Origin: Patescibacteria group bacterium
GTDB taxonomy: Bacteria; Patescibacteriota; Patescibacteriia; Buchananbacterales; UBA6539
Length of the DNA: 64,000 bases
Reading direction: 5' to 3'
Assembly (NCBI GenBank): GCA_028688055.1
Contig: JAQTYZ010000003.1
Location: 66,752-130,751, forward strand
Numbering within the stretch: the stretch's first letter is position 1; each line of letters opens with the position of its first letter. This document shows, one piece after another, positions 2-58,726 of this stretch. The notes under the pieces are model-generated. The model ran no database searches. It was not told where the DNA came from and was given only the letters and a program-made list of their open reading frames with translations. The position numbers and the translations under genes were made by a program.

Positions 2-448
2 GTGGCCAATAATGTGCCAATCTTAAATCGAAGTATCGACATTGGTGGGCTGACGATTACCAAATCAATTGCTAATAGTTTAAATGTCAGTTTGGCGCGG
101 GCGGAACAATTCAAATATGATATCGGGATGAACCCTGATCGCGTTGGCCAAGGATCAGTGCCAAAAACAATTGAGACAACCTTAACGCCGATCGTTGACG
201 AGTTGCGTTATAGCTTAAATCTTTATAAAAGCCAGGGTCAGAAAAATATTGAAAAAATAATTTTAACCGGTGGCTCGTCATTACTTTTAAATTTACCCGA
301 TTATTTAGCGAATGTTTTAGGCCTGCGAGTTTTTTTGGGTGATCCTTGGGCCCGGGTTATCTACCCCGAGGAATTAAAGCCCGTCTTAGATGAAATTGGT
401 CCTCGATTTTCAGTCGCCGTCGGTTTGGCGATGAGAGATATCGAATAA
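2..448 (+). CDS. pilM: Type IV pilus assembly protein PilM, C-terminal fragment (gene starts upstream of window)
   Basis: Actin-like ATPase C-terminal motif ILTGGSSLLLNLPDYL; lies first in a pilM-N-O-B...C order. Confidence 0.7.
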   Translation: MANNVPILNRSIDIGGLTITKSIANSLNVSLARAEQFKYDIGMNPDRVGQGSVPKTIETTLTPIVDELRYSLNLYKSQGQKNIEKIILTGGSSLLLNLPDYLANVLGLRVFLGDPWARVIYPEELKPVLDEIGPRFSVAVGLAMRDIE

Positions 449-451
449 TTT

Positions 452-1603
452 ATGCCGGAAATTAATTTATTACCAAATGAATTAAGGGAGAAAGAAGAGA
501 AGGAATTGGGTTCAAAAAAGAAATCCAAGAATTTTTCGGTTTCACTTTCCAGCCCCCAAAAAGAAAAAACTGAGGCGCCGCTAACAGCACCAAAATTTTC
601 GTTACTTAGCCGCTTGTTTTACAAACCGACCCCTAAAGCCAGATCTGTTCAAGTGGTGGCTGAAGAAAAAGAAATAAAAGAAGATCAGCCACCGGTCGAA
701 GCTAGGGTAGAAAATGTTATTTTATCGGACAGTCAGCCCCTTGATGAAATGGAGCATGATTTATTCATCAATAACAGTCAAGCGCCAACTGAAGGGGTAA
801 GTGAAAAAGGTGAAGCGGATAAAATAATAAATAAAGAAGATGGCCAGAAAATTGATGAGATCAAGGCGGAGCAAAAAAAGACAATTAAGCCAAGGGCTAA
901 GCTGTTTAACTTTTTTAAACGCGCGCCGAAGGTGGTTGATTCAAAAATAGTGGAGGAGGCTGAGGAAAAAGGTGGAGTGCACCATAATAAATCTTTTAGT
1001 CGAAGGCATGACAATAGTGATTCGGTTCTAGACGTCAATTTGATTCCGGCCGATTTGGCTAAGCGTCCCGATCTGGAACTAAAGTCGAAGGCAATTAAAA
1101 GCGGGGTGGCGATTTTTATCACAATTTTGTTAATTATTAGCACTTATCTAGGCATAACTTGGTATCAACTTAAAATTGCTCAGGAAATTAAAAATATTGA
1201 GGGTCAAATTAAAGATTATGATTCAAAAATAGCGGCTAAAGAGAATGAAAAAACATCGGCCCTCGATTTGCAACAGCGGCTAATTTTGGTTAAGCAGCTT
1301 TTTGACGGGCATGTTTATTGGACTAGGTTTTTCGATTTGTTAGAGAAATACACCAGCTCGGAAGTTTACTATACTAATTTTTCAATGGTGGGACAGGATA
1401 AACTGGTAATTTCGGCCGTGGGTATGGATTATCAGTCGGTTGCCCGACAGCTGGTTGCCTTTGAAAATGCAACTGACTTTGTTAAGTCGGTTAGAATTGA
1501 TTCGGCTTCGGCCAAAATTGATTCGGCCGACGGAAAATTTGCCGGCGTTAATTTCAACATTAATTTGGAATTTGTGCCAGGCGTTTTTTTACAGCCCAAC
1601 TAA
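452..1603 (+). CDS. PilN-like bitopic membrane protein with long low-complexity (K/E-rich) N-terminal region
   Basis: Single TM helix (VAIFITILLIISTYLGITWY) followed by coiled-coil/periplasmic domain; position immediately after pilM. Confidence 0.5.
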   Translation: MPEINLLPNELREKEEKELGSKKKSKNFSVSLSSPQKEKTEAPLTAPKFSLLSRLFYKPTPKARSVQVVAEEKEIKEDQPPVEARVENVILSDSQPLDEMEHDLFINNSQAPTEGVSEKGEADKIINKEDGQKIDEIKAEQKKTIKPRAKLFNFFKRAPKVVDSKIVEEAEEKGGVHHNKSFSRRHDNSDSVLDVNLIPADLAKRPDLELKSKAIKSGVAIFITILLIISTYLGITWYQLKIAQEIKNIEGQIKDYDSKIAAKENEKTSALDLQQRLILVKQLFDGHVYWTRFFDLLEKYTSSEVYYTNFSMVGQDKLVISAVGMDYQSVARQLVAFENATDFVKSVRIDSASAKIDSADGKFAGVNFNINLEFVPGVFLQPN

Positions 1604-30235: not shown

Positions 30236-31456
30236 ATGCCCAAGACTAAAAAAGTAGTTTCAAAAAAACCGGTCAAGAAAAAAGTTAGCAAGAAAAAACC
30301 GGTTAAAAAAGCCGCCAAACAGAAAGTCGCCAAGGCGACCAAGGCCACTAGGATGTCGAAGACGAAAGTGATCGCTAATTTTGAATTGATTAAACGGCTT
30401 TTAAATAAGGGTCGGACCCGTGGGTTTATTACGGAAACTGAAATTTTACATACTTTTCCGGAAGTTGAAGATTATTTGGAGGAGTATGAAAAGTTTTTGG
30501 GCAGGTTGGATCAGCTTGGATTGAATATCGTGGAAAGTGATGCTGGTTACTTAGGAACAACCGAGCGGCGGATGGAGGCATTGGATAAATCAGGCTTAGG
30601 CAAAAAAAATAAAAAAATTGATATTTCTGATATTTCCGCTGATTCAATTCAGATGTATCTGCGTGAAATCGGCAAAGTGCCATTGTTAAAATCAGAAGAA
30701 GAAATTTCTTTGGCCAAGAAATCGGAACACGGTGACAAGGAAGCCAAGAAGCGGTTAATCGAAGCCAACTTGCGGCTAGTCGTTTCGATTGCCAAGCGAT
30801 TCACTGGCAAAAGTTTGTCGTTACTTGATTTGATCCAGGAAGGTAATATCGGTTTGTTCCGCGCCGTCGAGAAATTTGATTATCGTCGTGGGTATAAATT
30901 TTCCACCTATGCAACTTGGTGGATTCGTCAAGCCATTACCCGAGCGTTAGCCGATCAGTCGCGAACGATTCGGATTCCGGTGCACATGGTTGAAACAATT
31001 AATAAATTTAAGCAAGCCGAGCGTCAACTGATTCAGGACTTGGGTCGTGAACCGTTGCCGGAAGAAATTGCCGCCGAAATGGGCGAACCGCTTGACAAAG
31101 TTCTTCATATCATTAAAATAAGTCAAGATACTATTTCGATTGAAACCTCGGTCGGCGAAGACGACGAGGACAGTACGCTGGAAGATTTTATTGAGGATGT
31201 TAGAACCGTCACCCCTGATCGGGCGGCGGCTTTGCAGTTATTGCGTGATTATGTCAATGAAATTATTAAGGATTTGACGCCCCGGGAGCAAAAGATTTTG
31301 GAAATGCGGTTTGGTCTTAAAGATGGCGTCGCCCATACGCTGGAGGAAGTCGGACAGGAATTTGATGTTACCAGAGAGCGCATCAGACAAATTGAAGCCA
31401 AAGCTTTAGAAAAAATTGAAAAACATAGTTTGATTGAGAAGTTAAGGGACTATTAG
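30236..31456 (+). CDS. rpoD: RNA polymerase sigma-70 factor RpoD with Lys-rich N-terminal tail
   Basis: Regions 1.2-4 including [13 protein letters not shown] (region 2.4) and region 4 HTH. Confidence 0.95.
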
Positions 31457-31486
31457 AAAATTAGTTTAAGATTAGGAGAGTTAAGC

Positions 31487-31540
31487 TCCGAGGTAGCTCA
31501 ACGGTAGAGTCCCGCCACGGCGGGATTAATCCATTGGTCC
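31487..31540 (+). pseudogene. Degenerate 5' fragment of tRNA-Asn (acceptor and D-arm intact, anticodon stem replaced by a GC mini-hairpin)
   Basis: TCCGAGGTAGCTCAACGGTAGAG is identical to the intact tRNA-Asn at 31807; it is followed by TCCCGCCACGGCGGGA and TTAATCCATTGGTCC. Confidence 0.5.
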
Positions 31541-31548
31541 TTGATTAT

Positions 31549-31794
31549 ATGAACTATTTCGTTTATATTATTAAGAATCAACAAGGCGCAATTTATATCG
31601 GTCAGACAAAGAATATTTTTGTCAGACTGAAGGTTCACAATTCGAACGAGGTTTTTTCAACGAAAAATCAAGGTCCCTGGAAACTTATTTATTTTGAAGA
31701 GTTCACATCTCGATCAGACGCCATGGCACGAGAAAAGCAGTTAAAAAGTTTTAAGGGTGGTAATGCTCTAAAAAAATTAATTGATAAAGTTTAA
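31549..31794 (+). CDS. Small GIY-YIG nuclease family protein (YhbQ/UPF0213-like); ATG 31549 preferred over the TTG at 31534
   Basis: YFVYIIKN...AIYIGQT (GIY/YIG), conserved Arg and EKQLK helix; 81 aa. Confidence 0.75.
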   Translation: MNYFVYIIKNQQGAIYIGQTKNIFVRLKVHNSNEVFSTKNQGPWKLIYFEEFTSRSDAMAREKQLKSFKGGNALKKLIDKV

Positions 31795-31806
31795 GGAGAG
31801 TTAAGC

Positions 31807-31878
31807 TCCGAGGTAGCTCAACGGTAGAGCAGTGGACTGTTAATCCATTGGTTCCGGGTTCGAATCCCGGCCTCGGAG
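31807..31878 (+). tRNA. tRNA-Asn (anticodon GTT), intronless
   Basis: U1:A72 and G73 as in bacterial tRNA-Asn; D-loop AACGGTA, anticodon loop CUGUUAA, T-loop TTCGAAT; 72 nt. Confidence 0.8.
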
Positions 31879-32103
31879 GAGGCTGGACGCGTTCCCGGAG
31901 ACCGGTTTGAGGCAGTCAACTTAGCCAAAAATAGTAGTCGTCAGTTTGTGTCCAATCCTAGGTGAGAAATCAGTTTAGAACCAGATAGCAAATTAGAGTC
32001 CAGTGATTAGGTAATACATAAGTGTTCTCGGCGACTGGCTCCGCCGATCAAAGGCTTGAAAATTTAAAACTGAATATTTATACTTCAAAAAAGAGTCATG
32101 TGC

Positions 32104-32396
32104 TCCGAGGTAGCTCAATGGTAGAGCAGCGGACTGTAGAATGATGCAGCCCCTAGGAGAAATCCTAAGGTGAAAATTTCGGGATAACGGTGAAGGCTAC
32201 GTTCGTCAGTTGACGGATATGCGAACACCGTGGGAACTCTGATCCGCCAGATGGCAGATCGGGGAGCGCCGTAGAGACTAGATACCGAAACACCTACATC
32301 CAAAATTGGATACGGTGATGATATAGTCCATCCCCCAACGAAAGTTGAGGACAAGATGTAATCCGTTGGTTCCGGGTCCGAGTCCCGGCCTCGGAG
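32104..32396 (+). tRNA. tRNA-Asn (GTT) interrupted by a 221-nt group I intron (32138-32358) in the anticodon loop
   Basis: Exons rebuild the same scaffold as the 31807 gene with anticodon loop CUGU|UAA; intron follows a U, ends with G, and carries R-like AGAGACTAGA and S-like GATATAGTCC (P7 pairing) plus a GAAA-capped P9. Confidence 0.7.
32138..32358 (+). other. Group I self-splicing intron (no ORF)
   Basis: P1 CUGU/GCAG with U.G at the 5' splice site, conserved R/S elements, omega-G at 32358. Confidence 0.7.
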
Positions 32397-32460
32397 CAGA
32401 TGACTTTTTGAAAAGAATTTTGAATAAAATAAGGCCAATCAGGTAGGTATACCGACGGCT

Positions 32461-33750
32461 TTATTTTACTAGAGAGACCTTTTGGTTTTTAAGATAGAGT
32501 TCAGTTTTTAAACAAGCCAATATCTCCCGCTTCTCATCGCGAGTTCCTTCGGCTAGTAAGTATTTAACGTATTCCTTGATGTCCACTTCGGACATTTTTA
32601 TTTCATCTCGGTTATTACCCTTGGAAATTAGCGTATTAAATTTTTGGTAACGCTCCATTTCCTGCTGCATTTTTTTCAGCGTACCCAACTTATCCAGTTC
32701 AATCTGATCAATTATTTTGAGCAACTCCTCGATTAATGTTTCTTCTCTGACGTACGCTTCTTTGCAATTGTAATCTTTGAATCGGTTACAGTGGTAGTAG
32801 ACGTAGCGTTTTATTGAACCATCATGTTTGATCTTTTTGAATTTATCTTCGGCTGTGACCCCTGATCCGCATGAACCACACTTAATCATGTTGGCGAAGT
32901 CAAATTCTTTGGTACCAGGTTTTAATTTCGGTGCTACCTCGAGATGTATCTTGACTTCGTTAAATAGATCTTTACTGATTAATGCCTGATGCGAACCTTT
33001 GTAGAATATTCCTGAACCCACCGGATACTCAAACTCGCCGTAATAGAAATGATTTTTGAGCATATTGTAAATACTACTCAATGCTATTTTCTTTCCGCTC
33101 CTCGTCCTAAATCCGATTTCATTCATCCATCGCTTGAGTGCCCGACCACTGTATCCTTGGTAGGCAACCTTTTCAAACATTTGAGTGATTACCGGCGCTC
33201 GCTTTGGATCAAGATATACTTTCCGCTGACCCTTCGTTTCGCCAATTCCGTGGAGGTAACCAATCGGAGGATAGCCTGGTCGCCAGCCCTGTTCACATTT
33301 GGCGCGAAGCCCTCGTTTAACATTCACTCCCTTGGCATCGTTTTCTAGTTTGGCAGTACTACCTAGGATCATCAACAAGAATTTTTCGTTCGGTGAATTA
33401 CCAAAGGTTTGTCCGTAGGTTTTTATCTGCTTCAAGATTCCCTGATCCATAAAATCAATGAGCTTGCCAAGGTCACCGGCGTTTCTGCTCAACCTATCAG
33501 GTGCCCAAGTTAAAATGGCGTTGTATTTTTCAGTTCGCAATGCCTCAACCATTTTATTAAATACCGGTCGTTTACCCGAATCTTTAGCTGAATGAGACTC
33601 CTCAAATGTCTCAAGGATTTCAATATTTTCTCGTTTGGCCACTACCGCCATTTCTTTATTCTGTGTTGGGATAGAAAGCTGTTGGAGTTCGTCAGACTCC
33701 GTGCTTTTCCGGCTATAGAGGCAATACCTCAAATTTTGTTCTAAGTCCAT
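32461..33750 (-). CDS. Large serine recombinase (resolvase-domain integrase)
   Basis: YSRKSTESDELQ catalytic Ser motif, DRLSRN, recombinase domain, zinc ribbon CGSCGS...YYHC, coiled-coil tail; adjacent to tRNA genes. Confidence 0.85.
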   Translation of the reverse strand: MDLEQNLRYCLYSRKSTESDELQQLSIPTQNKEMAVVAKRENIEILETFEESHSAKDSGKRPVFNKMVEALRTEKYNAILTWAPDRLSRNAGDLGKLIDFMDQGILKQIKTYGQTFGNSPNEKFLLMILGSTAKLENDAKGVNVKRGLRAKCEQGWRPGYPPIGYLHGIGETKGQRKVYLDPKRAPVITQMFEKVAYQGYSGRALKRWMNEIGFRTRSGKKIALSSIYNMLKNHFYYGEFEYPVGSGIFYKGSHQALISKDLFNEVKIHLEVAPKLKPGTKEFDFANMIKCGSCGSGVTAEDKFKKIKHDGSIKRYVYYHCNRFKDYNCKEAYVREETLIEELLKIIDQIELDKLGTLKKMQQEMERYQKFNTLISKGNNRDEIKMSEVDIKEYVKYLLAEGTRDEKREILACLKTELYLKNQKVSLVK

Positions 33751-34035
33751 ATTATTGATGGTTATTACTTATCAACTACATGGATGACGCACCGGTGGCT
33801 GGGTGTCCAGTTCCCATTGTAGGTAAACTGTAGGTAACTTAAAATCGATATTTTGGCTTTACTTTGGTTAATTTTTTTGGTATTTTATATGTAGTGAATC
33901 TGATTAATACTTGTTGAATAATTAGGCGCAACATAACTTATTTGCCTATAGGTTTTGCGCTGTTAATGAATAGATCAGTAAAAGCCCTTCTTATGATTAC
34001 GATTTTGAAGTTAAAATCGGAAAACAAAAAATAAT

Positions 34036-34950
34036 GTGGCATTATTTAAAATAATCGGCTCAACCGTAAAAAAAATCACCGCAAAAGAGCTTGACTTGGA
34101 GAAAAACCTGCAGACGCTTTTTGAAAATAATCTGGAGGAGTTATTGAACATTTTTTTTCTATCTCATGAGCATTCAACTGGCTTCGGTGGTAGAATTGAC
34201 ACACTCGGCATAGACAAGGATGGTGCGCCCTGCATTATTGAATACAAAAAAAATCAGAACAACAATGTTATCAATCAGGGACTTGCTTACCTTTATTGGC
34301 TGTTAGATCACAAAGCCGATTTTGAGAAAATTTGTCGGAATAATAAAATTGGTATCGAAATCGATTGGGATTCTCCCCGAGTTATTTGCGTAGCTGAAAG
34401 ATACAACAATTTTGATCTGGATACGGTCAACGTTTTGCCGATTAATGTTGAGCTTTGGCGCTACCGTATTTACGACGAAAATATTCTCTTTTTAGAGCCG
34501 GAGAATTTCCAGAAAGTTCGAATATCTACGGCCAGTATTATGCGGAAGACGAAGTATGATAGGGAAAAGCAGGAAATTATCCAAAAAAATTATTCGGTGG
34601 GAGAGCATCTTGCAAAAGCAGGTGAAGACATTAAATCGCTGTTTTTGAAGTTGCGCGAGAAAATAATCTCACTCGACACCGAGATTAAAGAAGATCCACA
34701 AAAAAACTACGTGGCTTATAAGTTATCAACGAATTTTGCGGACGTGGAAATCTACCGCAATCAACTTAAAATTTTCCTGAATGTAAAAAGCGGCCAGCTT
34801 AATAATCCTGATTCCATTGCCCGTGATATGGAAAATCCAAGGCACATCGGTCACCACGGCAATGGCGACTATGAATTAAAGCTGGAAAGCGATGAAGATA
34901 TGGATAAGGTGTTTTCACTTATCAAGCAAAGCTACGATCTGAATAAATAA
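34036..34950 (+). CDS. PD-(D/E)xK nuclease-superfamily protein (NucS/DUF91-like core), candidate restriction endonuclease (GTG start)
   Basis: GRIDTLGIDKDGAPCIIEYKK (D...ExK); directly upstream of an EcoRI-family MTase. Confidence 0.45.
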   Translation: MALFKIIGSTVKKITAKELDLEKNLQTLFENNLEELLNIFFLSHEHSTGFGGRIDTLGIDKDGAPCIIEYKKNQNNNVINQGLAYLYWLLDHKADFEKICRNNKIGIEIDWDSPRVICVAERYNNFDLDTVNVLPINVELWRYRIYDENILFLEPENFQKVRISTASIMRKTKYDREKQEIIQKNYSVGEHLAKAGEDIKSLFLKLREKIISLDTEIKEDPQKNYVAYKLSTNFADVEIYRNQLKIFLNVKSGQLNNPDSIARDMENPRHIGHHGNGDYELKLESDEDMDKVFSLIKQSYDLNK

Positions 34951-34954
34951 TATT

Positions 34955-36025
34955 ATGAGTACTCGATCACTAAATAGAAGTCTTCATAAGGCAAGCCAGG
35001 CAAAAAATGATGAGTTTTATACTCAGCTTGGCGATATTGCTAATGAGCTCCGGCATTACCGAGACCAGCTTAGCGGCAAGGTGATTCTTTGTAATTGCGA
35101 TGATCCATTTGAGAGCAACTTTTTCAAATATTTTGCAGCTAATTTCAACACGCTTGGGCTCAAGAAGCTCATCGCCACTAGTTATCAGAAGTCGCCGATT
35201 GTCGGCGGACAACTATCGCTTCTTGATATTGAAGGGCTCAAGCCGGAAGGGAGAGAACCGTATGTGGTGGAGATCAACGAAGTGCCGGATATGAATAGCG
35301 ACGGAGCGATAAGTTTGGATGATGTAGAGCATCTGCTTAAGCACAATAAAAATATCGCGATGCCGCTTAAAGGTGGCGGTGATTTTCGAAGTAAAGAATG
35401 TATTGAGCTTCTTAAAAAAGCCGATATTGTCGTCACCAATCCACCGTTCTCGCTCTTTCGGGAATATGTCGCACAGTTAATTGAGCATAACAAAAAATTT
35501 CTTATAATCGGCAGCAAAAACGCTATCACATACAAGGAAATTTTTAAGCTCATAAAAGAAAACAAATTGTGGCTTGGATATGGCTTTGCGGCCGGAAACG
35601 CATTTTTCAAAATTCCGGCAGAGAAAGCGCGCGAATTTGCGGCTGGTGTATATGATTCAAAAACTGGCCTTGTAAAGTTTCGTAATGTTGGATGGTTCAC
35701 CAACCTTTATGTTGATAAATCCGAAGATCCGATCACGCCCTATCTCACCTATGAGCAGGGACGCAAGAAAGGGCTTTATCCGAAATATGACAACTATGAC
35801 GCTATTGAAGTTTCGAAAGTCGCAGAAATTCCAAGTGATTACAAAGGCGTTATGGGCGTGCCTATAACGTTCTTAGACAAATGGGCACCCGAAAGCGGCA
35901 TAGAGATAGTCAAATTCAGAAAAGGCGATGATGATAAAGACCTAGCGTTTACGAGAGAGAGAGAGAGAGTACAACCGTACTTCAGAATACTCATTCGCTA
36001 TCGTCGGGCAAACAGGAGTCATTGA
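34955..36025 (+). CDS. EcoRI-family N6-adenine DNA methyltransferase
   Basis: N-terminal LHKA..NDEFYTQ and ILCNCDDPFESNFFKYFAANF are characteristic of the M.EcoRI family (from memory of the family); NPPF motif IV; (GA)8 tract 57 nt before the stop. Confidence 0.65.
   Translation: MSTRSLNRSLHKASQAKNDEFYTQLGDIANELRHYRDQLSGKVILCNCDDPFESNFFKYFAANFNTLGLKKLIATSYQKSPIVGGQLSLLDIEGLKPEGREPYVVEINEVPDMNSDGAISLDDVEHLLKHNKNIAMPLKGGGDFRSKECIELLKKADIVVTNPPFSLFREYVAQLIEHNKKFLIIGSKNAITYKEIFKLIKENKLWLGYGFAAGNAFFKIPAEKAREFAAGVYDSKTGLVKFRNVGWFTNLYVDKSEDPITPYLTYEQGRKKGLYPKYDNYDAIEVSKVAEIPSDYKGVMGVPITFLDKWAPESGIEIVKFRKGDDDKDLAFTRERERVQPYFRILIRYRRANRSH
35953..35969 (+). repeat. (GA)8 microsatellite inside the MTase 3' coding region
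   Basis: CGAGAGAGAGAGAGAGAGTAC; a +/-2 nt change switches to an alternative, longer C-terminus. Confidence 0.9.
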
Positions 36026-36229
36026 GCCAGATGGAATCTGTATTGAGTACAAGGCGGGCAGGCCGTACATTAAGGGACAAAGGAAGTATGCGAGATTATT
36101 TATTAAGCAAAAACAAATTTGAAATCCTTGGCATCGCAAACTCTGCGCGATGGATAGGATACAAATTATATACGATTATAGATGGCCGAAAAATTTACAA
36201 TAGGATTATAATTAGACGAAGATAATAAT

Positions 36230-37327
36230 ATGAATATAGAACTCAAAAATATCAAAATACGCGACGTAGTGAAGGGCTACAAAGACAGTGGCGAGAGCGG
36301 CGTGGTTGGTTACGGCGGCAAACTAAACATTCGTCCGGCGTTTCAGCGCGAGTTTATTTACGGCCAGAAAGAGCGCGACGCTGTTATAAGGACAGTACGG
36401 TCTAGCTTCCCGCTCAACACAATGTATTGGTCGGTGGACAGAGACGGCGGCTTTGAACTCATGGATGGACAACAGCGCACCATTTCTATTTGCCAATATG
36501 TCACCGAGATTATCCCAATAAAGTTTGATGACGGCTACGAACTGGCATTTAACAATTTGACCACCGATCAGCAAGAGAAGATTTTGAATTATGACCTCTC
36601 CGTCTATATCTGCGAAGGAACGGAAAGCGAAAAACTTGCATGGTTTCGGACGATCAATATCGCAGGCAAGCCATTAACCGATCAGGAACTCTTAAACGCC
36701 ATGCACACTGGGCCGTGGCTTGCCGATGCCAAACGCTGGTTTAGCAAGACAGGCGGACCGGCGTATCAGATTGGCGAAAATTATGTAAACGGCTCGCCGA
36801 TTCGCCAAGATTATCTGGAAAAGGCGCTTGACTGGATTTCGGATGGAAAGATTGAGAATTATATGAGCCGCCACCAGCAAGACAAAGACGCGCAGGAATT
36901 GTGGCAGTATTTTCAAGAAGTCGTAGCATGGGTTGAGCGCGTATTCCCCGAGTATCGAAAAATTATGAAGGGCTTAGAATGGGGGCGATTTTACAATGAG
37001 CACAAGGGCGATAAATTAAATGCGGCAAGCTTGGAAAAACGAATTGCGGGATTGATTGAAGATGACGAAGTAGATAATAAGAAAGGTATTTATGAATATC
37101 TTTTGACCGGAAACGAGAAGACGCTCAATCTGCGCGCCTTTGATGAAAAGACGAAAGTTAAACAGTACGAGAAACAGAAAGGAATTTGCCCGACATGTAA
37201 GAAACATTTTGAAATTGATGAAATGGAAGCTGATCACATTGTTCCATGGAATCAAGGTGGAAAAACAATGGAGAAAAATTGCCAGATGCTGTGCAAACAG
37301 GACAATAGGACTAAGTCTGGGAAATAA
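36230..37327 (+). CDS. DUF262 (ParB-like NTPase) - HNH nuclease fusion, GmrSD-like type IV restriction candidate
   Basis: RPAFQREFIY and DGQQRTISI (DUF262 signatures); C-terminal HNH DHIVPWNQGG...C..C..DN. Confidence 0.7.
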   Translation: MNIELKNIKIRDVVKGYKDSGESGVVGYGGKLNIRPAFQREFIYGQKERDAVIRTVRSSFPLNTMYWSVDRDGGFELMDGQQRTISICQYVTEIIPIKFDDGYELAFNNLTTDQQEKILNYDLSVYICEGTESEKLAWFRTINIAGKPLTDQELLNAMHTGPWLADAKRWFSKTGGPAYQIGENYVNGSPIRQDYLEKALDWISDGKIENYMSRHQQDKDAQELWQYFQEVVAWVERVFPEYRKIMKGLEWGRFYNEHKGDKLNAASLEKRIAGLIEDDEVDNKKGIYEYLLTGNEKTLNLRAFDEKTKVKQYEKQKGICPTCKKHFEIDEMEADHIVPWNQGGKTMEKNCQMLCKQDNRTKSGK

Positions 37328-37330
37328 AAA

Positions 37331-38698
37331 ATGAGTATGAACATGGAAAATTCAAAATGGAAAAAGAAAGATATCGCTATTAAAGACCTTTTGCTGTGGG
37401 ATGAAAACGCGCGTTTTTCTGATCAGTATTTTGACCTCTCGGAAGAAGACCTGTTGAAACATTTCTTAATAAGTAAATTTCAGCTACTTAAACTTGCTGG
37501 CGAGATGGAAAAAGATGCCGACCTTCCTCAGTTGGAAAAAATTGTTGTCTGGCGTTCCAATGATCGTAATATAATTCTTGAGGGCAATAGACGAATCGCC
37601 GCATATAAATTACTGGCAAATCCGAAATTGGCCGGTGTTCAAGAAAGTAAATTTTCAAAAATTGGGTCAAAGGTTGGGATTTCCGAAGACTTCGAAGTTG
37701 AATGTCTTGTCACTGAAGATTTGGAACAAGGTTACCGATTTATCGAGAGAAAGCACCTTAATCAAAACAACGAAGTTTCTTGGGGTTCAAATGAGATCGC
37801 CCATCATAAAGATCGCCGAGGAAAGGCCGGTGAAAAAGAACTAATAAGAGTCGGTATTACGAAAGTTGTTAATGACCTCGAAATGGCAAACGAGTTAAAG
37901 GAAGCCGTCTTGGGACCGGGATATGTAACTACTTTTTGGAGACTGACCGGACAAACACCCGCCCAGCAGTATTTTGGCTTCTCTTTCGGTGATGATAAAA
38001 AGTTGAAAATAAAAGATGGTGACTTCGATAAAAAACTGAAAGTTATTGTCTGGGATGTACTCAAAAACGGCCAGTATAAGGGAAAGTTGTTTTCTCGTTT
38101 AAATAATGCGGAAATATCGGATTATTTGAAAAATATTTCTGATAAAGATTACAATCGAGCATCGCAAGAGATAGAAGAGGCAGAAAACAATAAACAGAGT
38201 GATCTTTTCGGGAAAGCGAGCGTTGCTACGAACTACAATTTTAGGATACGAAAAACTCCGGTTACTAAAACTGGAAACGACCTTTTCGGCAGGACTTTAG
38301 CTTTACAGTCCGGCCATGTAAATGATTTATATCGCGCCCTTGCAGATATTGATAAAAAAAATCAAGGTAACGATGCGGTTTTGCCGTTTTTGGGTATGGC
38401 CCTGCGTCTTTTAGTAGAAGTTGCCGCTCGCGTGCATTATGACAATAATGGCGACAAAGAAAAAGCTAAAAAGGATCAAATTTGCGAGATATTTTTGAAA
38501 GAAGCGAAGAAGAAACTAAATCAGCATCGAAAAAATGATATTTCCCTTACTAATGATTGGCTTTCAGATAAAAGAAATCTTAGTGCTATTTTGGACAAGT
38601 ATGCTCATGGCCAAATTGTTTGTAAACGTGCCGATGTATTAAAAGATTCATACATTGTCGCTGATATTTTAGATTTCTACTTCGAAAAGAAGTCTTAA
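37331..38698 (+). CDS. ParB-like nuclease-domain protein, function unknown
   Basis: LLLWDENARF and ILEGNRRIAAYKLL resemble the ParB/Srx N-terminal domain. Confidence 0.45.
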   Translation: MSMNMENSKWKKKDIAIKDLLLWDENARFSDQYFDLSEEDLLKHFLISKFQLLKLAGEMEKDADLPQLEKIVVWRSNDRNIILEGNRRIAAYKLLANPKLAGVQESKFSKIGSKVGISEDFEVECLVTEDLEQGYRFIERKHLNQNNEVSWGSNEIAHHKDRRGKAGEKELIRVGITKVVNDLEMANELKEAVLGPGYVTTFWRLTGQTPAQQYFGFSFGDDKKLKIKDGDFDKKLKVIVWDVLKNGQYKGKLFSRLNNAEISDYLKNISDKDYNRASQEIEEAENNKQSDLFGKASVATNYNFRIRKTPVTKTGNDLFGRTLALQSGHVNDLYRALADIDKKNQGNDAVLPFLGMALRLLVEVAARVHYDNNGDKEKAKKDQICEIFLKEAKKKLNQHRKNDISLTNDWLSDKRNLSAILDKYAHGQIVCKRADVLKDSYIVADILDFYFEKKS

Positions 38699-38703
38699 TT
38701 TAT

Positions 38704-39552
38704 ATGCAAAAGATACCACGAAAAAGAAACCAAAAATTACACTGTAGCCCGTTAAGATATCCCGGAGGGAAGACTTTTTTATTTCCTTTCTTTGATAATG
38801 TCATAAAGGATAACGGATTGGAAAAGGTTACCTATGTCGAACCGTTCGCCGGTGGTGCCGGTGCGGCACTGGTTTTGCTACTATCCGGGAAAGTTGATCG
38901 CATTGTGATTAATGACTTGGATAAAGCTATCTATGCTTTTTGGAAATCGTCTATATTTAATCCCGACAAATTTATAAAAAAGATAAAATCAACCCCGGTA
39001 ACCATTAATGAATGGAAAAAGCAAAAGGCGATTTATAATAACCCGAAGGCTAGTCTCTTTGATCTCGGTTTTGCCACTTTTTTTCTCAATAGAACTAATA
39101 CGTCCGGCATTTTGGACGGCGGACCTATTGGAGGATTAAGACAAAAAGGTAAATACAAAATCGATGCCAGATTTAACAAGGACACTTTGATAGAACGAAT
39201 ACAGCGGATAGCCACACATAAAAAGAAAATATCAGTTTTTAATAAGGACGGACTTAGGTTGATTGGTGAGTATTTAAATAAAAAGAATACATTTATATAT
39301 CTTGACCCACCTTATTTTGAAAAAGGCGCAACACTTTATCTAAACCACTATAAAAAAGAAAATCACGAGGCTCTGGCTAAAAAGCTAAACGATAACCCTG
39401 ATGCCTTTTGGCTGTTAACGTATGATAACAAAAAAGAAATTAAGTCACTTTATTCGAACAGACATATCATCAACTTTTCGCTGAATTACAATGCCTACAA
39501 ATCCCGCAATGGTAGAGAAGTTATGATTATGTCAGATGCGCTCATAAGGTAA
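38704..39552 (+). CDS. Dam-family (D12 class) N6-adenine DNA methyltransferase
   Basis: LRYPGGKTFL SAM-binding N-terminus, DPPY catalytic motif (YLDPPYF). Confidence 0.8.
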   Translation: MQKIPRKRNQKLHCSPLRYPGGKTFLFPFFDNVIKDNGLEKVTYVEPFAGGAGAALVLLLSGKVDRIVINDLDKAIYAFWKSSIFNPDKFIKKIKSTPVTINEWKKQKAIYNNPKASLFDLGFATFFLNRTNTSGILDGGPIGGLRQKGKYKIDARFNKDTLIERIQRIATHKKKISVFNKDGLRLIGEYLNKKNTFIYLDPPYFEKGATLYLNHYKKENHEALAKKLNDNPDAFWLLTYDNKKEIKSLYSNRHIINFSLNYNAYKSRNGREVMIMSDALIR

Positions 39553-39603
39553 AGCAGGTAGACAAACTGTAGATAACCTAAAAGCTCAAAATATGCTAGA
39601 ATA

Positions 39604-39632
39604 TTGACAATATTACGATATTGTGGTATTGT
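39604..39632 (+). promoter_or_regulatory. Sigma-70-like promoter for the DGR target gene
   Basis: TTGACA, 17-nt spacer, TGgTATTGT extended -10. Confidence 0.45.
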
Positions 39633-39719
39633 AATATATCCGATTACCAACGTGGTAAAAGGTCCCCAGCCTCGGGGAGAGGCAGATACCAACTGGCCAT
39701 CGGCTAGGAGGATAGGAAA

Positions 39720-40685
39720 ATGATGTGTACTTTGACGGGAGTTTCCGACCTTGACGAGTTGTCTCATGCCCATTGGAAGGCGTTAGCCAACAAATGCGGC
39801 GGTCTGGAAAATGTTATTGCCGTCCTGCAAGGAGAGCAAGAGATTACCCTCCGGGAAATCATCAAGCTCCTCATTGACCGGAACGGTCGTGGCATCCCCG
39901 ACAAGTCGGTGGTGAAGTCGAATGTGTGCGACGCAAACCGCGCATACTACTTTGACCGCCTGCCGGACGATTACGACTTTGCCGCCATGCTGTCATTGTG
40001 GCAGGAGCGCTTCAAGCAGAATCCGGGCATGGATGCCAAGGAATTCCGCGAGCGTATCGCTGGCATCCGGGGAATGATTGCGGCTAACCGCCAGATCAGA
40101 AATCTGGACACACCAAACGCCGCGCCGTGGTTCCCGCTTATCCTGCCGCAGATTCCGTTGCAAAAGCCCGAAGGCGACGAAGCAGTCGAGGCCAAACAAA
40201 TGGACTACGGCACATTGCTCGAAGACACCTTGTTGCCCGCCGTCGAGGCGAGTTACATTGCGGCCTACCCCCAGCGGCAGTTTATCAACTACCGCAAGGG
40301 TGAGCTGTCAGGACAGGTGACGATCGTCGAGGAACGTCACGCCAAGCTCTACCAAGACTTGGCCAACGGTCCGATTATCGGGATTTTGTTCCCGACAGCG
40401 TTGCACGGCTTCAGCCCGTTTGCCCAGCGCGAGATGATCACCCTTATGCCAGAGCACTGCTCACTTGAGGGACCGATGGACATGGGTGTCGCCGAAACGC
40501 TGTACACACGGCAACTGTCGCGTGACAACAACACGCCCGTGAAAGACTGCTCTGCAGTCCAATGGCGGGACCCCGAGTACTCGCTGTACTTCAACGCCGA
40601 CGACGACGAGCTCGGGTTCGACTACGGGGACGACCTCGGCCTTGCGTACGGCGGCTCTGCGGGTGGGGTGTTCTTCCGCGGGTAG
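39720..40685 (+). CDS. DGR target (variable) protein; the C-terminal 40 codons form the variable repeat
   Basis: GC-rich ORF whose 3' 120 nt (40563-40682) is an A-mismatch-only copy of the TR at 41050; RBS GGAGGA. Confidence 0.75.
   Translation: MMCTLTGVSDLDELSHAHWKALANKCGGLENVIAVLQGEQEITLREIIKLLIDRNGRGIPDKSVVKSNVCDANRAYYFDRLPDDYDFAAMLSLWQERFKQNPGMDAKEFRERIAGIRGMIAANRQIRNLDTPNAAPWFPLILPQIPLQKPEGDEAVEAKQMDYGTLLEDTLLPAVEASYIAAYPQRQFINYRKGELSGQVTIVEERHAKLYQDLANGPIIGILFPTALHGFSPFAQREMITLMPEHCSLEGPMDMGVAETLYTRQLSRDNNTPVKDCSAVQWRDPEYSLYFNADDDELGFDYGDDLGLAYGGSAGGVFFRG
40563..40682 (+). repeat. DGR variable repeat (VR)
   Basis: 120 nt aligned to TR with 16 substitutions, every one at a TR adenine. 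Confidence 0.85.
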
Positions 40686-40756
40686 TGAATTGGTCTTTGA
40701 CCTTTGGTACCTTGATACTTTTGGTGCCTTGGTCAGATCACGCTACTTATTTAATC

Positions 40757-58656: not shown

Positions 58657-58696
58657 TTTACGACAGTTGAGTTTTTTATTTTAAAAATAGTTGATT

Positions 58697-58726
58697 CCCG
58701 CCACCGCGGGATTTTTTATTAGCTAA
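58697..58726 (+). terminator. Rho-independent terminator
   Basis: GATTCCCGCCACCGCGGGATTTTTT. Confidence 0.6.

Follow-up and report, generated by a model that had tools for sequence, protein, structure and literature searches.

The locus studied here raised two questions: whether a tRNA-Asn gene interrupted in its anticodon loop carries a genuine group I intron, and whether that gene or the uninterrupted tRNA-Asn gene lying next to it is the functional, resident copy. Both genes were examined in a stretch of 64,000 nt (the window), and the coordinates of the relevant features are collected in Table 1. We estimated a probability of about 85% that 32104-32396 is the resident tRNA-Asn(GUU) gene of an uncultured, ultra-small bacterium of the Patescibacteria (CPR), split by an ORF-less group I intron and most likely functional, and that the intronless copy is a lineage-specific paralogue.

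Table 1. Features at and around the split tRNA-Asn gene. Positions are those of the window, except in the last row, where they are those of the named contigs.
Feature	Position	Strand	Remarks
rpoD	30236..31456	+	conserved upstream neighbour of intron-bearing tRNA-Asn genes
Broken tRNA-Asn stub	31474..31538	+	repeat, hairpin and tRNA positions 35-47
GIY-YIG nuclease-domain ORF, 81 aa, intact	31549..31794	+	Pfam PF01541, E 3.5e-18; between stub and intronless copy
Intronless tRNA-Asn(GUU) paralogue	31807..31878	+	canonical UUCGAAU T-loop; ARAGORN; Rfam 75 bits
Promoter-like site TTGAAA-17-TATACT	32056..32084	+	10/12 consensus match; ~20 nt 5' of split gene
5' exon of tRNA-Asn(GUU), positions 1-35	32104..32137	+	TCCGAGGTAGCTCAATGGTAGAGCAGCGGACTGT; last bases C32 U33 G34 U35
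Group I intron, 221 nt, ORF-less, at anticodon-loop position 35/36	32138..32358	+	omega-G = 32358; RF00028, family alignment, fold z
P1	32134..32149	+	32134-32138 (exon CUGU and first intron base) with UGCAG 32145-32149; U35.G wobble = 5' splice site
P2 hairpin	32152..32169	+	GAAA loop 32159-32162; 7/7 pairs covary
P3	32177..32290	+	UUUCGG 32177-32182 / CCGAAA 32285-32290; 4/6 pairs covary, 100% paired
P4	32187..32231	+	ACGGUG 32187-32192 / CACCGU 32226-32231; family alignment; surrounds P5/P5a 32196-32222
P6/P6a	32233..32270	+	family alignment
P7 (guanosine-binding helix)	32274..32329	+	G.GACUA 32274-32280 / UAGUCC 32324-32329; 6/6 pairs invariant in 56 sequences
P9 hairpin	32333..32350	+	GAAA loop 32340-32343; 6/7 pairs covary
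3' exon of tRNA-Asn, positions 36-73	32359..32396	+	starts UAAUCC; T-loop UCCGAGU (C55, G59); discriminator G73
Large serine recombinase, convergent with tRNA	32461..33750	-	stop codon 65 nt past tRNA 3' end
Stub-hairpin-GIY-YIG-tRNA layout in relatives	L022 rc 1386-1746; L159 541-856; L183 1-283; L186 rc about 172-520		

Joining the two exons restored a tRNA-Asn(GUU) cloverleaf, with the exon junction between CUGU and UAA and the 221 nt of 32138-32358 intervening. ARAGORN called tRNA-Asn(gtt) from the in silico spliced sequence, the point at which the original prediction had said that a missing call would count against it, and with intron search switched on it called tRNA-Asn i(35,221) from the unspliced locus. 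The predicted exons (32104-32137 and 32359-32396) therefore proved exact, and the intron began after a U (U35, 32137) and ended with a G (G32358), as had been read from the sequence. In its default mode ARAGORN did not report the split gene, and Rfam at gathering thresholds missed it too, reporting only the intronless tRNA-Asn at 31807-31878. By ARAGORN and direct reading, the spliced cloverleaf contained the GUU anticodon, U1-A72, and G73; in place of the canonical U54 U55 C56, its T-loop read UCCGAGU, with C55. Compared to the intronless copy, the spliced tRNA differed at 5 of 72 positions, namely one D-loop base, a compensatory change of an anticodon-stem pair from U-A to C-G, and U55C and A59G in the T-loop. 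The two copies, identical at the other 67 positions, are thus nearly the same, in line with the original description. The promoter-like site 5' to the split gene was the best such match in the region, as judged from consensus match alone.

The intervening sequence was then compared with known group I introns. Under permissive filters the Rfam Intron_gpI model (RF00028) matched 32127-32350 over its full length (model positions 1-253) with 45.7 bits (E = 4e-10 in a 1.3 kb search, 2e-8 over the 64 kb window). A covariance-model hit, the absence of which had been named as grounds for abandoning the intron, was thus obtained, though at a score that does not reach the curated gathering score of 50 for membership, and for this reason a default Rfam scan is silent. 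Since the Intron_gpI model holds no bacterial seed sequences, laxer Rfam cut-offs were applied both by Williams 2020 (bioRxiv 10.1101/2020.01.27.920355) and by Nakagawa et al. (bioRxiv 2025.07.03.662931; mSystems 2026, PMC13011429). The intron folded with z = -3.3 relative to shuffled sequences, with none of 200 shuffles folding as well, and the single-sequence centroid fold already contained P2, P3, P4, P5, P6, P8, and P9. The elements found included P1 as CUGU(A)/(U)GCAG, GUAGAGACUAGA, GAUAUAGUCC, and a GAAA-capped P9, so that P1, the R-like and S-like elements that form P7, and the P9 hairpin were all present as predicted.

A family alignment was prepared from 56 ORF-less (HEG-less) introns, that of the window included, with a consensus covering P1-P6, P8, and P9, into which the invariant P7 pseudoknot was entered by hand. 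Across the 53 pairs of this consensus, 97.1% of cells were paired, compared to 35-42% when partners were slid; the covariation score was 0.528 against at most 0.13, none of 500 shuffles reached the observed value, and double changes occurred in 29 pairs. The U35.G wobble, formed in the window by U35 (32137) and G32146, was invariant across the homologues, as was the terminal G. In P1 the four exon pairs were likewise invariant in all 56 sequences and the fifth pair covaried (AU 22, CG 15, GC 14, GU 5). P3 surrounds P4-P6 and the 5' strand of P7, which makes a pseudoknot with P3 and itself surrounds P8 (32291-32317; 3 of 4 pairs covarying). No P7.1/P7.2 insertion was present between P7 and P3' in the window's intron. 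P5 contains a GCUACG/UAUGC internal loop, and the internal loops of P8 and P5 were CCUAA-/UAUGG-like; by their likeness to those of the Azoarcus intron they may act as tetraloop receptors. Overall, the covariation in the 56-sequence alignment supports the proposed P1-P9 structure. Among the 91 columns with at least 85% conservation, the window intron deviated in just one, and it had two non-standard pairs, a number typical for the family, indicating that the core has not decayed.

More than 160 homologous introns were found at the same site in tRNA-Asn, tRNA-Asp, and tRNA-Tyr genes of public contigs, mostly from Patescibacteria. GTDB species genomes were scanned with a pattern joining the J8/7-P7 motif to the tRNA-Asn 3' exon; of the 49 contigs that matched, again mostly Patescibacteria, 43 yielded a complete tRNA-Asn gene that an intron of 198-630 nt interrupts at 35/36. 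The window's own intron type, searched in metagenome contigs as GGGAUAACGGUGAA ... CCGUAGAGACUA, occurred in at least 120 contigs. Among the matches listed, the parsed hosts were 48 Asn (47 contigs and the window gene), 14 Asp, and 13 Tyr tRNA genes, and the intron lay after CUGU in all of them; the 35/36 position was shared by 43 genome and 75 metagenome homologues. The same intron family could be found in all three genes because its guide pairs with CUGU, which is common to tRNAs with GUN anticodons. These homologues at one site settled the group I identity, and the Rfam match, the homologues, and the covariation all agreed with the prediction of a compact group I intron in the anticodon loop.

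Viral sequences were also searched. A blastn search of the whole split gene against phage genomes gave no match. A scan for the intron core followed by GTAATCC returned 18 group I introns with no tRNA present, and these were set aside as irrelevant. They came from IMG/VR contigs (L001-L018), among them several giant-virus bins and phages of >200 kb, and read CAGAGACUAAA ... AAGAUAUAGUCC followed by a conserved 3' exon, GUAAUCCUCAAAU, the host presumably being a conserved protein-coding gene.

The original prediction knew of no group I intron in tRNA-Asn, a statement that the literature has overtaken. Williams 2020 extended the types of tRNA group I introns from 4 to 21, and Asn.4Ug is among them according to Nakagawa et al., who described introns at 35/36 in Patescibacteria tRNA-Asn, tRNA-Asp, and tRNA-Tyr and classed nearly all of them as subgroup IA. 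In that study, precise in vitro self-splicing was demonstrated for two Patescibacteria introns, with the cyanobacterial/plastid tRNA-Leu(UAA) intron as the positive control; annotation failure and HNH genes in long tRNA-Asn introns were also reported, and intron-bearing and intronless copies in one genome were found to be rare. Members of the window's type are listed in its Table S3 (GCA_030583765.1 tRNA-Asn and GCA_016699995.1 tRNA-Tyr). Those introns and the window's share host gene, site after CUGU, and phylum, as well as the blindness of standard annotation and, in relatives, the Asn/Thr boundary ambiguity of ARAGORN; HNH genes within the intron were likewise seen here, in ~45 loci. The window differs in that its genome keeps an adjacent intronless tRNA-Asn and its host tRNA has C55, and the assayed introns belong to other sequence types: in global alignments to the window intron, the assayed pair reached 59% and 53%, compared to 64-65% for members of its own type (n = 2). 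The window intron is therefore a further example of a catalogued class, and the claim of novelty fails. What is unusual at the locus is only the neighbouring intronless twin.

The textbook compact bacterial tRNA intron is that of the Azoarcus pre-tRNA-Ile, a member of subgroup IC3 with ~200 nt and no ORF. The window intron resembles it in size, in being ORF-less, in the GUAGAGACUAGA J6/7-P7 motif, in an anticodon stem that holds the exons, in the GAAA loops on P2 and P9, and in the receptor-like internal loops of P8 and P5. However, the Azoarcus intron lies at 36/37 of tRNA-Ile(CAU) whereas that of the window lies at 35/36 of a GUN tRNA, the J3/4-P4-P6 sequences differ, and the Patescibacteria introns were published as IA, not IC. 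The cyanobacterial/plastid tRNA-Leu(UAA) intron (IC3) is likewise a group I intron that interrupts a bacterial tRNA at the anticodon loop, and it self-splices, but it differs in site (34/35), host tRNA, and clade.

From group I chemistry and the assays on related introns, we infer that the window intron would be removed in two steps initiated by guanosine. In the precursor, exon bases C32-U35 and the first intron base would pair with the internal guide UGCAG as P1, in which the U35.G wobble would set the 5' splice site. The core would be assembled from P3-P8 and P4-P6, probably braced by docking of the P2 and P9 GAAA loops into the receptor-like internal loops of P8 and P5. A free guanosine held in P7 would attack after U35; G32358 would next occupy the same site, and the exons, kept together by the anticodon stem, would be ligated. 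The predicted products are a 72-nt tRNA-Asn and the 221-nt intron.

We further investigated which of the two tRNA-Asn genes was the resident one. rpoD adjoined an intron-bearing tRNA in 58 fetched loci, and the split gene of the window occupies the conserved dnaG-rpoD-tRNA-Asn position. The window RpoD was 70-75% identical to those of named Uhrbacteria and Patescibacteria MAGs (L058, L065, L024, L063), with which this synteny was shared; both observations point, indirectly, to a host within the Patescibacteria. In the closest relative (L138, RpoD 86% identical), the order was dnaG, rpoD, a 97-aa HNH ORF, and the intron-bearing tRNA-Asn, and its gene aligned with 32090-32414, ~40 nt of each flank included. 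The rpoD synteny, together with the alignment of the L138 gene and its flanks, indicated that the intron-bearing copy is the orthologous resident gene. Relative to L138, the stub, the GIY-YIG ORF, and the intronless copy would be lineage-specific additions.

The serine recombinase ending just 3' to the split gene suggested a different assignment, in which the intron-bearing gene arrived as cargo of a mobile island led by this recombinase and the intronless copy is the true resident. The recombinase opens a block, in the region 32461-40700, encoding DUF5655, an EcoRI-like methylase, GmrSD-HNH, and a D12 methylase, that is, methylase/restriction- and defence-type functions, and this block resembles an island that integrated next to the tRNA. 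Homologous recombinases were also convergent with, and a few hundred nt downstream of, intron-bearing tRNA-Asn/Tyr genes in at least seven other loci (L155, L094, L104, L071, L035, L180, L032). Both the short distance and this recurrence are what a cargo gene would lead one to expect. However, L138 lacks the recombinase and yet carries the intron-bearing gene at the same place after rpoD with both flanks alignable, the rpoD neighbourhood was seen in 58 loci, and what the window has in excess of L138 does not include the intron-bearing copy but consists of the intronless one with the stub and the GIY-YIG ORF. We therefore consider the cargo explanation highly improbable. The T-loop was also considered as an att scar of the recombinase and this was rejected: the differences between the two copies are spread along the whole tRNA, and L081 shares this T-loop but has no recombinase. 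Elsewhere in the window, a full-length match to the LOOT RNA motif (RF03000), a structured RNA, was observed at 42771-42888 (+) with 80 bits (E 1.9e-13).

Residency of the split gene left its function to be considered. Nearly all tRNAs have U55, and C55 had been taken in the original prediction as a reason to doubt which copy is functional. This doubt was weakened by the recurrence of such T-loops. Two other intron-bearing tRNA-Asn genes had UCCGA loops: L081 carried the identical UCCGAGU on a tRNA with different stems, and L080 (RpoD 69% identical) carried UCCGAAU on its tRNA-Asn, the only one located downstream of rpoD and unaccompanied by a second copy within 5.7 kb. When about 60 intronless tRNAs were scanned (59 from related contigs and 3 from the window), UCCGA loops were present in four, one Trp, two Thr, and one Met, all in related contigs and none in the window. 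Position 55 is thus not strictly U in these Patescibacteria contigs. G59 was common, occurring in 12 of 48 Asn hosts among the matches listed, L138 included. UGCAAAU T-loops were observed in Met and Tyr tRNAs of related contigs.

The canonical intronless neighbour could make the split gene dispensable. In that case the intron-bearing copy would be redundant and drifting to a pseudogene, the intronless copy would supply tRNA-Asn, U55C would cripple the contact between T-loop and D-loop, and the intron would merely persist. Two adjacent genes share one anticodon and the non-canonical T-loop is confined to the intron-bearing one, C55 was seen in none of the 49 genome-scan matches, and such redundancy is unusual, pairs of this kind being rare (PMC13011429). 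Against this stand the undecayed intron core, the compensatory nature of the anticodon-stem difference, the promoter-like site just 5' to the split gene, and C55 itself, which recurs in diverged tRNA-Asn genes, including the unaccompanied one of L080 at the rpoD position, and in Trp, Thr, and Met tRNAs of related contigs. Given the recurrence of C55 and the promoter-like site, a functional gene is favoured, with the drifting redundant copy as an unlikely explanation that is nevertheless the main rival. These comparisons make it most likely that the intron-bearing gene is expressed and works in spite of C55.

The intronless copy was examined for its origin. No intronless Asn, Asp, or Tyr tRNA was found near the intron-bearing one in any of the 169 other fetched loci, in agreement with the rarity noted in PMC13011429. 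The 225-nt spacer between the copies (31879-32103) gave no Rfam hit, no similarity to fetched loci, and no HNH remnant, and its fold was unexceptional (z = 0.21). The two copies differ by 5 nt; the nearest other tRNA-Asn parsed in the fetched loci was 10 nt away from the intron-bearing copy and 6 nt from the intronless one. These distances fit, without proving, a duplication or gene conversion within the lineage.

The region 5' to the intronless copy held further traces of tRNA-Asn. Positions 31474-31509 of the stub, comprising a leader and tRNA positions 1-23, repeat 31794-31829 perfectly over 36 nt. A 16-nt hairpin, TCCCGCCACGGCGGGA (31510-31525), lies 3' of this repeat and is followed by tRNA positions 35-47, which were copied from an intronless template. 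A near-identical hairpin, TCCCGCCACCGCGGGA, at 58696-58717 was considered as a relative of TCCCGCCACGGCGGGA and dismissed: it is an ordinary terminator with a T-run, and the likeness was taken as coincidence.

With repeats of 36 nt and shorter in the region, at or near which the short-read contigs of SRR22315507 break, the tandem might also have arisen in assembly, as a chimera that joins an intron-bearing and an intronless allele from two strains. A separate Logan contig (SRR22315507), an independent assembly, was however 100% identical to 31824-39750, running without mismatch from inside the intronless copy across the intron-bearing one. The 3' part of the intronless copy, the spacer, the intron-bearing copy, and the recombinase island are thus physically linked. 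The independent contigs miss the left half of the tandem (the end of rpoD, the stub, the GIY-YIG gene, and the 5' part of the intronless copy): when looked up as exact proteins, neither RpoD nor the GIY-YIG protein, with either of its possible starts, was on record, and the DnaG contig ended inside rpoD, so that the left junction is without independent assembly support. We give the chimera next to no credence.

The stub, hairpin, GIY-YIG ORF, and tRNA of the window (31474-31806 up to the intronless copy) have the same layout in four other contigs (L022, L159, L183, L186). In each, a 12-28 nt tRNA-Asn 5' stub is followed by one or two GC-rich hairpins, a GIY-YIG ORF of ~81 aa, and a complete tRNA-Asn directly 3'; in all four the downstream tRNA is intron-bearing. 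The ORF was intact in the window and L022, and frameshifted or interrupted in L159, L183, and L186. Three decayed ORFs among the four other contigs are as expected for the life cycle of a homing gene, and the layout has the appearance of a mobile or homing cassette that targets tRNA genes. No description of it was found in the literature searched. We infer that the intronless copy is a lineage-specific extra paralogue tied to this cassette. A more speculative reading, which we hold as doubtful, is that the locus is a snapshot of conflict between the intron and homing-type nuclease genes: the GIY-YIG cassette would target the 5' half or anticodon stem of tRNA-Asn, leave a hairpin-disrupted stub, rebuild the gene downstream, and in doing so have made or captured the intronless copy. 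If so, the Patescibacteria would harbour a mobile cassette aimed at tRNA genes that has yet to be described.

A second kind of nuclease gene was associated with the intron family. One family of 97-aa HNH proteins (55-70% identical, with a CANCHRELH motif) occupied two locations: inside L1 of ~45 long introns (for example L080, 1590-1871), or free-standing just 5' of a tRNA-Asn with an ORF-less intron (L138, 9313-9603; L137, L135, L031). In collaborative homing, reportedly described by Bonocora and Shub and by Zeng et al. in 2009 (cyanophage psbA), a free-standing endonuclease lies beside an endonuclease-less intron. The HNH placement in relatives matches this arrangement, and the window has a GIY-YIG gene in the same upstream place. 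The comparison differs in that the HNH and GIY-YIG proteins here are predicted nucleases, and the GIY-YIG protein of the window consists of nothing beyond an 81-aa catalytic domain.

Split genes of this kind escape default tRNA and Rfam annotation, and the genomes then seem to be without tRNA-Asn, a lesson already present in the literature. To that literature the window adds one more clear-cut instance of the most frequent sequence type among these introns, and it shows one intron family serving tRNAs for Asn, Asp, and Tyr. What interest remains attaches to the recurrent GIY-YIG cassette and to the pair of genes, a rare case in which intron-bearing and intronless genes with the same anticodon lie 225 nt apart. 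This pair could be a natural test bed for intron loss or gain, and could help to show whether the intron has no effect on its host gene, regulates it, or protects it against endonucleases.
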